NCBI RefSeq assembly: GCF_000027125.1
Contig: NC_017626.1
Source: Escherichia coli 042
GTDB lineage: Bacteria; Pseudomonadota; Gammaproteobacteria; Enterobacterales; Enterobacteriaceae
Strand: one strand, 5' to 3'
Length of the DNA: 64,000 nucleotides
Position numbers and translations under genes: made by a program. The notes beneath the pieces were generated by a model. It was not told where the DNA came from and searched no databases. It saw only the letters and a program-made list of their open reading frames with translations. Shown here in pieces: positions 4,063-6,047 of this stretch. Positions within the stretch are counted from its first letter, which is position 1; every line of letters begins with the position of its first letter.

Positions 4063-4080
4063 CGCACTTTCGACTTACGT

Positions 4081-4107
4081 TTAGAAATGTAGTATCTGAA
4101 ATATAAT
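4081..4107 (+). promoter_or_regulatory. Candidate sigma70 promoter for islet gene A
   Basis: ttagaa (4081-4086), 15 bp spacer, tataat (4102-4107) just upstream of the GGAG RBS; prediction by eye only. Confidence 0.25.
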
Positions 4108-4120
4108 AGTGGAGAATATC

Positions 4121-4498
4121 ATGCAGTTAGTTTGTACCATCGATAAAAAATATATGGATAAATTTATGGCTATACTGTTTTCAGGAGTGTTACATTCCTT
4201 GAAAGAAGGTTCAATAACTATAGATGAATCTGAACTACTTGTTTTTAGACCTTTTATTTCCAGGCTTTTGCACAAAAATAGTTGTGATAAAGAGTTAATA
4301 GATATAATCGATCTTGGTTGTGAGTTTGAAGATATTGAGTCCCTGGTTCCTGAGCATCTTGATGATGCTATAAAAAACTTAATAACCAAAGTAAGTGATT
4401 TTACATATGCAACAAAAGATAATTATCCCTTGAGTGATAAAATGGAACATGCAGTATCTTTTATGTTTACAAATAACAACGGGCATGATGTGCATTAA
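4121..4498 (+). CDS. Hypothetical small acidic protein, islet gene A (125 aa from ATG 4121)
   Basis: GGAG at 4111-4114, 6 nt spacer, ATG 4121; very AT-rich; no motif recognised; C-terminal 26 aa are homologous to the fragment at 5749-5830. Confidence 0.5.
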   Translation: MQLVCTIDKKYMDKFMAILFSGVLHSLKEGSITIDESELLVFRPFISRLLHKNSCDKELIDIIDLGCEFEDIESLVPEHLDDAIKNLITKVSDFTYATKDNYPLSDKMEHAVSFMFTNNNGHDVH

Positions 4499-4586
4499 TG
4501 TGGAATGCTAATAAATTGACCATAATTATGTATTCTTAGAATAGTATTGCAAATGTTAATTATGAAAATAAATATTGTGGATTATA

Positions 4587-5045
4587 ATGAAAAATAAAAT
4601 CGAGTTTGATCAGGCTATTAAAAATGCTTATCTCGATATGGCGTTTCCCAACTTTGCATTTGTGATGGAGAAGTATAACTCATTAAAATATAAAGGCATA
4701 ATTACTGAGTTGAGTTCACGGTTTGATGTAAGAGATAACACTGAATTAAATAATGATGTTTGTTTTTCATTAGAAGTTGTTTTGCAAGAAGGTATTGCCT
4801 TTTTATATATGTCTTTTGTCGGGCAATATGCATTTATAATATTCAAAAACGACGTTATAACAAAACATGCAAATATAAATGCAGATGTAGCAGGTTTAAT
4901 TGATATATTGCTTTGTCATGAATTCATGATTTTGGATAAAGAATTTTTACTAAGTGAAGTTAGTTGCGATATTTGTCCGTTTTTAGTCGAAGCAAATAAT
5001 AAATATTTAAATTATTTATTCGCTCGTGGATTGAAAATAAAATAG
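4587..5045 (+). CDS. Hypothetical protein, islet gene B (152 aa from ATG 4587)
   Basis: ORF in AT-rich islet; weak GGA RBS; the ORF-track TTG start at 4575 has no RBS; no recognised motif. Confidence 0.45.
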   Translation: MKNKIEFDQAIKNAYLDMAFPNFAFVMEKYNSLKYKGIITELSSRFDVRDNTELNNDVCFSLEVVLQEGIAFLYMSFVGQYAFIIFKNDVITKHANINADVAGLIDILLCHEFMILDKEFLLSEVSCDICPFLVEANNKYLNYLFARGLKIK

Positions 5046-5104
5046 CGTTATTGTTAACTAGTTTAAGATATTGAAATTTGTTATTTAACATATCAGGATG
5101 TTCT

Positions 5105-5704
5105 ATGTTAATAAAGTTAATTGATTTACAAACTATCAAGATTTTCGAAAAAATAAACTCATCTTCATCCGATTTAAGTAAGGAAATAAAAATAAAATCG
5201 CCGCTTCTAATTCCCTATGAAAATCAAGGGGTAACATTTTATTGTGATGAGCTATATGTATTTGATTCCGATGGTTATATTGTATTTGGTCATGATTTAG
5301 ATGGTTATTTTATTGTTAGCGTAAAAAACAAGAAAGTTTATTACTTGTATGATATAGACGAATGCGCAAATTTTACGATGATGTATTGCAATTCTGGAAT
5401 AAATGATTTTATTATATTCAATAATATTTTTATGCAGGCGGTTTTTAAACAATCAGAATTGATGGAAAAACAATTGTTAACAGATGATGAAATTTTATCA
5501 GATGCAATGGATGCTATATTTACCCAATGCGACAGTGAGGCTATGAAAGATGATGCCTTCTGGGGCTTAAGATGCTACGAGCTTCGCGACGGCTTTTTTC
5601 CTTTAAATGATGCCAAAATTAAATTTTATAGTGAAATGGAAAAAGGTCCTCATCAAGGCAAAAGTGAATCCATTCACAAGAGCAAGTTGAACAAAAATGA
5701 TTAA
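5105..5704 (+). CDS. Hypothetical protein, islet gene C (199 aa from ATG 5105); possible SUKH/SMI1-like immunity-type fold (speculative)
   Basis: AGGA at 5095-5098 with 6 nt spacer; the segment GVTFYCDELYVFDSDGYIVFGHDLDGYFIVSVKNKKVYYLYDID resembles the aromatic/Gly/Asp-rich core of immunity-type small proteins. Confidence 0.5.
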   Translation: MLIKLIDLQTIKIFEKINSSSSDLSKEIKIKSPLLIPYENQGVTFYCDELYVFDSDGYIVFGHDLDGYFIVSVKNKKVYYLYDIDECANFTMMYCNSGINDFIIFNNIFMQAVFKQSELMEKQLLTDDEILSDAMDAIFTQCDSEAMKDDAFWGLRCYELRDGFFPLNDAKIKFYSEMEKGPHQGKSESIHKSKLNKND

Positions 5705-5830
5705 ATGAGAGGCTCTTCACATCGCCGCTTCATTATTCGTCCAGAAAAAGATGATTATCCCTTAAGTGATGAAATGGAAAATGTGGTTTCCTTGGGATTT
5801 AGCAATAATAAGGATTTGCAGAATGTTTAA
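5705..5830 (+). pseudogene. 41-codon chimeric remnant: ybhN 3-prime-end copy fused to the 3-prime end of a gene-A homologue
   Basis: ATG 5705 directly after the gene C stop; the last 26 codons (DDYPLSDEMENVVSLGFSNNKDLQNV) align with the gene A C-terminus (13 of 26 aa identical by hand). Confidence 0.35.
5715..5734. repeat. Duplicate of the ybhN 3-prime terminus (att-like direct repeat)
   Basis: cttcacatcgccgcttcatt at 5715-5734 is identical to 6046-6065 (reverse-strand end of ybhN, ...NEAAM stop); 24 of 25 nt when extended. Confidence 0.65.
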
Positions 5831-6044
5831 AGATAAAACTGTCGCAGCGGAAATTAGTGCATTAATGCTTGAGATTGGTGCGAAATTAGATAATTCCGTT
5901 TCAGTTGTTCAGATAAGTTGTGATGAATCTGAGTTTAATATTTATCGGGCCGCCGTTGGTGAAATTATGGGGCGCATGCTAATCGACATCATGAACCCCA
6001 TTTATAAACAGCATCCCGAACTTAAACAAAAAGAACTTAACTAA
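5823..6044 (+). CDS. Hypothetical small protein, islet gene D (73 aa from ATG 5823)
   Basis: AGGA at 5811-5814 with 8 nt spacer; stop is 3 bp from the convergent ybhN stop; the ORF-track start at 5766 has no RBS. Confidence 0.4.
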   Translation: MFKDKTVAAEISALMLEIGAKLDNSVSVVQISCDESEFNIYRAAVGEIMGRMLIDIMNPIYKQHPELKQKELN

Positions 6045-6047
6045 ACT

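Follow-up and report, generated by a model that had tools for sequence, protein, structure and literature searches.

A toxin-less islet of four small genes between ybhM and ybhN of Escherichia coli 042 as a probable array of orphan immunity genes

Orphan CdiI immunity proteins of contact-dependent growth inhibition (CDI) systems are expressed and give protection (Poole et al. 2011, PMC3150448), immunity arrays without toxins protect gut Bacteroidales (Ross et al., 10.1101/471110), and supernumerary SUKH genes have been proposed to protect against non-self toxins (Zhang et al. 2011, PMC3113570). The orphan cdiA-CT/cdiI and rhs-CT/rhsI modules (PMC3150448) lie downstream of cdiBAI or of the main rhs gene and as a rule still carry a toxin-CT fragment with a VENN or PxxxxDPxGL junction, while the acquired interbacterial defence (AID) and rAID-1 clusters of gut Bacteroidales (10.1101/471110) sit on mobile elements or beside a recombinase and can hold many genes. 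The closest published analogue from the Enterobacteriaceae is the putative immunity islet of Salmonella Typhi against toxins of type VI secretion systems (T6SS) and CDI (Barretto & Fowler 2020, PMC7400221), which comprises 14 genes at another locus. Here we analyse a stretch of 64,000 nt from Escherichia coli 042 (contig NC_017626.1; hereafter the window), in which an AT-rich islet of four small genes, A to D, separates ybhM from ybhN. Judging from homology and gene neighbourhood, this islet is probably a toxin-less array of orphan immunity genes against polymorphic toxins delivered by contact, i.e. by CDI/type V secretion systems (T5SS) or by Rhs/T6SS. The evidence comes mainly from gene A, a member of the DUF3969 family, from gene C, a member of the SUKH-4 family, and from the absence of any toxin beside them.

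DUF3969 and its partner toxin domain

Gene A matches the Pfam family DUF3969 (PF13108) with E=3e-16 (residues 10-91 on model positions 4-85 of 106). It keeps seven of the eight near-invariant residues of the family (G22, P44, G66, E68, E70, D71 and P77; L69 is replaced by F) and retains the conserved G-C-E-L-E-D-I-x-S-L-x-P-E core as 'LGCEFEDIESLVPE'. The family has no stated function, and no mention of DUF3969 or PF13108 was found in the literature searched. Its relatives, collected by an exhaustive phmmer search, form 255 clusters at 50% identity and are mostly stand-alone proteins of ~110 amino acids (aa). The nearest relative outside the ybhM-ybhN locus (P0034, 43% identity) is encoded in an Rhs orphan array, where its gene overlaps the end of an Rhs C-terminal tip (ATGA); loci L010-L013 show a DUF3969 gene behind an Rhs C-terminal tip with such an ATGA overlap. 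At locus L020 a 14-nt overlap joins the end of the gene for a CdiA-type haemagglutinin-repeat protein (1439 aa) to a DUF3969 gene (P0040), and another DUF3969 gene follows further downstream. The toxin tips of this CdiA protein and of the L010-L013 Rhs proteins are homologous and share the sequence '...LRKVESGxWxKxYKDGxDxSGxRVSxHYFxSQSGxVFxVKVKPxWSN'.

We surveyed this pairing in species-representative genomes of Enterobacterales, Pseudomonas, Bacillota, Treponema and cyanobacteria, searching all open reading frames (ORFs) of 79 DUF3969 loci with an iterated profile of the toxin tip. We found a toxin domain, full or remnant, directly upstream of DUF3969 in 41 of the 79 genomes: 24 loci carry a complete domain of ~87 aa at the extreme C-terminus of the directly upstream ORF (in the full-length examples listed, the distance from its end to the DUF3969 start is -4 to +25 nt), and 17 carry a truncated 3' remnant, like displaced orphan modules. 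The other 38 loci show no adjacent toxin domain. The carriers of the domain are Rhs/YD-repeat proteins of >1900 aa, CdiA-type Fil_haemagg_2 proteins, and one LXG, one PT-HINT and one PT-TG protein; these architectures are those of classical polymorphic toxins. Since the adjoining domain occurs on CdiA, Rhs, LXG and pre-toxin HINT/TG proteins, gene neighbourhood identifies DUF3969 as the predicted immunity family for one polymorphic-toxin domain. Such an arrangement marks the C-terminal domain of a polymorphic toxin and its cognate immunity gene; delivery would proceed by T5SS, T6SS or the type VII secretion system (T7SS), depending on the lineage.

For the ~87-aa domain itself, searches of Pfam, of NCBIfam and of the PDB (the latter by sequence and by profile) gave no match. 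Its conservation is unusually high (mean column identity 70%), with 47-70% identity across Pseudomonadota, Bacillota and cyanobacteria; H68, F70 and K81 are among its invariant residues and Y69 is nearly so (aligned examples are listed in Table 1). The DUF3969 proteins share only 25-37% identity. Intact copies of the toxin domain are found on CdiA proteins of Proteus, Pseudomonas and Moraxella. The toxin family also circulates in E. coli, where 873 of the 5426 complete RefSeq genomes match the toxin-tip/DUF3969 module of L010. In strain SE11 (L104, 8923-9928) this module, flanked by insertion sequence (IS) elements and a second Rhs core, belongs to a VgrG-Rhs locus beside pptA. Both halves are decayed there: the toxin domain is interrupted by an in-frame stop and DUF3969 by a frameshift. 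A further copy of the L010-type module was seen on plasmid pL65-4 (L105, 307-1312). We regard the functional assignment of DUF3969, together with the recognition of its partner toxin domain, as the most reusable result of this analysis: DUF3969 can now be annotated as the putative immunity partner of an unnamed ~87-aa domain, and the two would form a directly testable pair.

Several further observations concern the family. In proteins of 430-464 aa at L014-L018, L047 and L049, a HEAT-like region is fused to a DUF3969 domain at the N-terminus; their genes sit in same-strand arrays with HEAT_2 and DUF4279 genes on gut metagenome contigs, and these loci look like large multi-gene immunity arrays. 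P0010 (L009, 2825-3226; 133 aa) is 82% identical to the middle of A, has a weak Fic/DOC hit and lies beside an IS1595-family transposase. We take it for a probable chimeric fragment, on an IS-flanked metagenome contig, and judged a link of DUF3969 to Fic proteins uninformative for that reason. A match of the DUF3969 profile to PDB chain 9n69_F ('TIGR02646 family protein', E=1.9e-4) spans 26 residues only and was not used, being too short.

The islet, its genes and its history

The gene order in this part of the E. coli chromosome is moaE, ybhL, ybhM, islet, ybhN, clsB, ybhP, and the islet (4063-6047) fills ~2 kb between the stop codons of ybhM (4062) and ybhN (6048). Its GC content is 0.25-0.37 (400-nt windows across 4001-6000) versus 0.51-0.57 in the moa genes and in ybhN, clsB and ybhP; at third codon positions it is 0.24-0.34 for the four islet genes and 0.66 for ybhN. 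This bears out the AT-rich islet that the original prediction had picked out from the bare letters of the stretch. The four ORFs it had listed are likewise all present and intact, and they are matched by gene calls in independent assemblies, e.g. L106; RefSeq homologues of A, B and D have the same lengths, and those of C 186-192 aa. Plausible ribosome-binding sites had been proposed for all four, which holds for A, C and D (GGAG/AGGA-type, 8-9 nt upstream); the site of B is weak. The proteins are indeed small, acidic (pI 4.7-5.0 for all four) and soluble, and library scans return no enzymatic domain in A-D, in agreement with the absence of a recognisable catalytic motif. Neither an integrase nor a transposase, both of which had been reported missing, occurs among the ORFs of 2000-9000. 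Rfam and tRNA scans find no tRNA integration site and no Rfam element at the islet, and we rejected both tRNA-site integration and a structured RNA element in it. As the left boundary, the 3' end of ybhM at 4062 was correctly placed; ybhM itself, however, is a pseudogene here, its codon 100 being changed from TTA to TAA (in-frame stop at 3646-3648). Both K-12 and the near-identical metagenome contig L106 have an intact ybhM, and the changed codon is either a strain-specific pseudogene mutation or a sequencing error. The best sigma-70-like site of the region (Table 1) is possibly the islet's own promoter. This is a weak hint: the promoter/terminator scan gave 17 such sites in the region versus 15.0 +/- 4.6 in shuffles, i.e. 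counts not above those of the shuffles.

Table 1. Coordinates of the islet genes, of neighbouring features and of aligned toxin-domain examples
Feature	Sequence	Position	Strand	Description
ybhM	window	3349..4062	+	Bax-inhibitor-1/YccA family; pseudogene; ~40% GC; left neighbour of the islet; 94.5% identity to the K-12 region
sigma-70-like site	window	4080..4107	+	TTTAGA-16-TATAAT; 10/12, best in region; 13 nt upstream of gene A
Gene A	window	4121..4498	+	125 aa; DUF3969 family; predicted immunity protein for the conserved ~87-aa polymorphic-toxin domain
Gene B	window	4587..5045	+	152 aa; acidic, soluble; Escherichia-only family
Gene C	window	5105..5704	+	199 aa; SUKH-4 family immunity protein
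ybhN 3'-end copy	window	5715..5742		Stop and last ~8 codons, antisense; former right junction of the A-B-C cassette
A2 remnant	window	5743..5830	+	3' end of a second DUF3969 gene; 5' ~290 nt replaced
Gene D	window	5823..6044	+	73 aa; acidic two-helix hairpin (predicted); usual DUF3969 partner at the locus in Escherichia
ybhN	window	6048..7004	-	Core gene; right boundary of the islet; dN/dS 0.00-0.03
Toxin domain	L020	5739-6008		Aligned example
Toxin domain	L026	5738-5992		Aligned example
Toxin domain	L080	3646-3909		Aligned example
Toxin domain	L062	5721-5978		Aligned example

Gene C is the second gene with a recognisable immunity family. It matches Pfam SUKH-4 (PF14435) with E=6.9e-6 and a score of 26.7 (query 55-153 on model 78-173 of 179), and its homologue in strain N96, 91% identical at the protein level, bears the RefSeq name 'SUKH-4 family immunity protein'. 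No copy of C was found on plasmids. Genes B and D belong to families confined to Escherichia, with no detectable relatives beyond; homologues of D, from E. coli, Shigella, E. albertii and E. fergusonii, form 20 clusters, and the gene follows DUF3969 by 1-13 nt in the common alleles. An AlphaFold2 (AF2) model of D (predicted local distance difference test score 89.8) consists of helices 5-32 and 35-63. Searched with Foldseek, it returns only generic hairpins at E>2 and no significant match, and a resemblance to WXG100/Esx proteins was rejected as non-specific. Comparison of A-D with NCBIfam gave nothing meaningful, and a sequence search of the PDB gave no match. No relatives of B, C or D occur inside the 79+ polymorphic-toxin loci. 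B and D are plausible immunity proteins in view of their position next to A and C.

We compared the window alleles with those of seven other Escherichia loci by the ratio of nonsynonymous to synonymous substitution rates (dN/dS). The values are 0.13-0.38 for A relative to the window allele (up to 0.83 between two other alleles), 0.25-0.47 for B, 0.10-0.25 for C and 0.13-0.40 for D. Thus A-D are protein-coding genes under purifying but relaxed constraint. Synonymous divergence (dS) of A between allele classes reaches ~1.0, near saturation, versus 0.13-0.25 for the neighbouring ybhN. A-D are real genes because their reading frames stay open across allele classes near synonymous saturation. These dS values also suggest that the allele classes of the islet are far older than the surrounding chromosome, which fits either a long-maintained polymorphism or exchange between Escherichia species.

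No toxin accompanies these genes. No ORF of the window encodes more than 810 aa, and the window therefore contains no Rhs or CdiA protein. The toxin profile detects no remnant of the domain in six-frame translations of the window or of thirteen other Escherichia loci (alleles of the locus plus one unrelated metagenome contig; best E=2.8). Because ybhM lies upstream of it and no toxin remnant is present, gene A is an orphan rather than half of a toxin-immunity pair.

The islet has a composite origin, as revealed by local BLAST and a five-way alignment. The internal gene-fragment repeat and the duplicated junction noted in the original prediction are both real: the 3' end of A is repeated (4414-4479 versus 5746-5811; 66 nt, 77%), and so is the 3' end of ybhN (5715-5742 versus 6046-6073; 28 nt, 93%). 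Positions 4114-5739 are collinear with an 'A-B-C/ybhN' allele of GF4-3 (92.4%), including 28 nt of the ybhN 3' end, and positions 5742-6098 with a 'DUF3969-D/ybhN' allele of 88-3493 (93.6%), starting ~80 nt before the DUF3969 end. As the two halves are collinear with these two allele classes, respectively, the islet is a composite, in which A-B-C and a ybhN 3'-end segment replaced the 5' ~290 nt of the resident DUF3969 gene in a DUF3969-D allele. The ybhN copy within the islet is collinear with the junctions of C and ybhN in N96 and GF4-3. The A-B-C cassette is itself a mosaic: GF4-3 has the nearest relatives of A and B (96% and 91% aa identity), while C is closest to N96/L022 (91-94%, versus 81% for GF4-3). 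No microhomology is seen at the cassette joint (~5742/5743), and we rejected a simple homologous crossover at the right end, this joint being free of microhomology. Likely, the left join arose by homologous crossover in ybhM or the 5' region of A and the right join by an illegitimate event, and one-sided or illegitimate recombination would have stacked two cassettes without an integrase. The composite recurs in independent metagenome assemblies, namely L106 (run ERR260153; 98.5% to the window in a gap-free match of 8178 nt), L107 (SRR31508379; limited to C, D and ybhN, 98.7% over 2124 nt) and L108 (SRR31546707; 99.8% over 2085 nt), and is therefore a real circulating allele and no assembly artefact. 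The fusion also created, by chance, a 41-aa ORF (5705-5830) from the antisense ybhN 3'-end copy and the truncated DUF3969 tail; it begins right after the C stop and overlaps the start of D, and where the truncated gene once ended in TAG, the window reads CAG.

Among the complete E. coli genomes the islet is rare. The right flank (6048-9003) matches 5423 of the 5426 at 97-99% identity, and a 201-nt probe spanning the empty junction is matched contiguously in 5336. The spacer between ybhM and ybhN in K-12 (DH1) measures 35 bp, so the short spacer stated for K-12 in the original prediction is correct. A DUF3969 gene lies at the locus in 38 genomes and the B-C pair in five; the four-gene composite is found in none. 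DUF3969 with D is the common form of the locus, its position is fixed across the Escherichia alleles compared, and in E. albertii the DUF3969-D pair likewise stands behind a ybhM-like gene. There the order is ybhL, sulfatase, ybhM-like gene, DUF3969, D, ybhQ (L023-L025), without ybhN, clsB and ybhP. Between ybhL and the DUF3969 gene, the number of Bax-inhibitor-1 (BI-1)/YccA paralogs varies from 0 to 3 among strains (L001, L005 and L006 in E. coli). The hotspot of variation is the whole ybhL-ybhN interval, beyond the 2-kb islet.

Elsewhere in the window, the sole Rfam family above its gathering score is the small RNA ES036 (CssrF) at 16818-16860 on the minus strand. ARAGORN calls an 85-nt tRNA-Gly(GCC) at 19326-19410 (plus strand) inside a 761-aa ORF (17445-19730), probably a false positive. 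A second stretch of low GC content (0.41-0.45) at 57000-62000 holds ORFs of 808 aa and 442 aa directly after four same-strand ORFs; these are probably, as in K-12, the core genes gsiABCD followed by pdeI/dgcI.

Orphan immunity and the alternatives

The islet would act as follows. A competitor's CDI or T6SS/Rhs machinery injects a toxin domain into the cytoplasm, where A and C would each bind and neutralise one type of toxin, and B and D possibly others; the carrier would survive attack by strains with weapons that it lacks, a passive form of protection. The original prediction had named orphan immunity-gene arrays or small defence islets as the likely context. Its first half is supported by A (DUF3969), C (SUKH-4) and the lack of a toxin, with B and D added from their position; its second half, anti-phage defence, is not, as A-D match no PADLOC-DB family at E<=0.1 and, among PHROGs, only families of unknown function at E>0.01.

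Several points weigh against an array of functional immunity genes. Immunity proteins are usually highly specific, and between A and the DUF3969 proteins that adjoin toxins identity is no more than 25-43%. The SUKH-4 match of C is limited to the C-terminal half of the Pfam model. Since B and D have neither relatives in the polymorphic-toxin loci examined nor an informative fold match, position alone assigns half of the array. DNA as AT-rich as that of the islet (25-36% GC) may be silenced by H-NS, and the rarity of the element (0.7% of complete genomes) counts against a strong general benefit. Finally, DUF3969 in Escherichia always stands behind Bax-inhibitor-1 paralogs and never behind a toxin, which leaves room for another functional link.

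One may also go further than a toxin-less array. In a wider proposal, ybhL-ybhN would be a genus-wide immunity-gene collecting site that works without an integrase, by one-sided stacking; B and D would found new immunity families; the BI-1 paralogs (ybhM and its copies) would be immunity factors against membrane-targeting toxins; and DUF3969 with the ~87-aa domain would be an undescribed pan-bacterial T5SS/T6SS/T7SS pair. That all of this holds jointly we can suggest only tentatively, and we rate it well below the simpler reading as an orphan immunity array.

The best-surviving rival, although itself unlikely, is that the four genes are relics, i.e. surviving debris of an ancient Escherichia toxin-immunity locus that has fallen into disuse and is being lost. 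The small number of genomes with DUF3969 at the locus would agree with this, as would the truncation of one DUF3969 copy and the nonsense codon in the neighbouring ybhM. The Rhs-linked toxin/DUF3969 module is decayed in SE11, and related modules are present in 873 genomes. With dN/dS of 0.2-0.5, the islet genes are 10-fold more relaxed than ybhN, and occupation of the locus in E. albertii too is consistent with ancestral presence followed by loss. However, all four ORFs are intact and their dN/dS is clearly <1 across a dS of ~1.0, over which neutral decay would have destroyed them, and independent assemblies carry the composite allele at 98.5-99.8% identity without any disrupting change.

Less probable still is an accessory role beside the BI-1 proteins, in which DUF3969 and D would act with the YbhL/YbhM paralogs, e.g. 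in membrane stress or ion homeostasis. In every Escherichia allele DUF3969 stands behind ybhL/BI-1 paralogs in the same orientation, whatever their number (0-3), and wherever a ybhM or ybhM-like gene is annotated, that gene directly precedes it; no terminator-like site separates ybhM from A, and E. albertii keeps the order ybhM-like gene, DUF3969, D despite the absence of ybhN, clsB and ybhP. Yet N96, 88-3493 and AHM8C212RI keep DUF3969 without an annotated ybhM, and the window combines a ybhM pseudogene with intact A-D. Outside Escherichia, moreover, the classified upstream ORFs pair DUF3969 with toxin tips on Rhs, CdiA, LXG, PT-HINT and PT-TG proteins.

A small anti-phage system or toxin-antitoxin module of novel proteins, e.g. 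DUF3969 with the tightly coupled D, appears the most improbable: it would suit an AT-rich, strain-variable islet of small unknown genes, the short DUF3969-D gap and the TIGR02646 match, but the PADLOC and PHROG searches speak against it, A-D contain no nuclease, NTPase or other enzymatic domain and have no recognisable growth-inhibiting partner, D is predicted to be a plain helical hairpin, and the 26 residues matched to TIGR02646 are too few to carry weight.

Relation to described immunity-gene systems

Taken together, the islet most likely belongs to an already known class, the orphan immunity arrays, and neither the islet nor the assignment of DUF3969 overturns current understanding. With the orphan modules of CDI and Rhs systems it shares small immunity genes that are kept without a deliverable toxin, and a history in which recombination stacks modules and displaces or truncates an older copy. 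DUF3969 genes in fact fill this slot at L010 (Rhs) and L020 (CdiA). In contrast to these modules, the islet has no cdi or rhs gene within 64 kb and no toxin remnant, and its duplicated junction is the 3' end of the housekeeping gene ybhN. It is thus no CDI/Rhs orphan module in the strict sense.

Like the AID and rAID-1 clusters, whose arrays lack the cognate toxins and vary in content among strains, the islet combines immunity genes with a toxin-free surrounding: A and C belong to immunity families, and the window encodes no toxin for them. A role in surviving T6SS attack by other strains and species has been demonstrated for the AID clusters, whereas for the islet it is proposed. The islet has four genes at a fixed chromosomal junction in one genus, with no recombinase, integrase or IS, and because it lacks a mobile element or recombinase it is not an AID/rAID cluster. 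The arrays of the SUKH superfamily (PMC3113570) resemble it in that C is a SUKH-4 protein and in that the paper describes heterogeneous tandem immunity-gene arrays; in the islet, only one of the four genes is SUKH, and A, B and D belong to unrelated families.

If protective, the islet would represent a compact E. coli case of 'immunity without weaponry' at an ordinary chromosomal junction, free of mobile-element machinery; the experimental record for such immunity comes mainly from Bacteroidales and from CDI orphan modules. Its nearest counterpart remains the Typhi islet, which is likewise defined in silico, is restricted to a lineage, and is largely made up of orphan immunity genes with no corresponding toxins in the genome.

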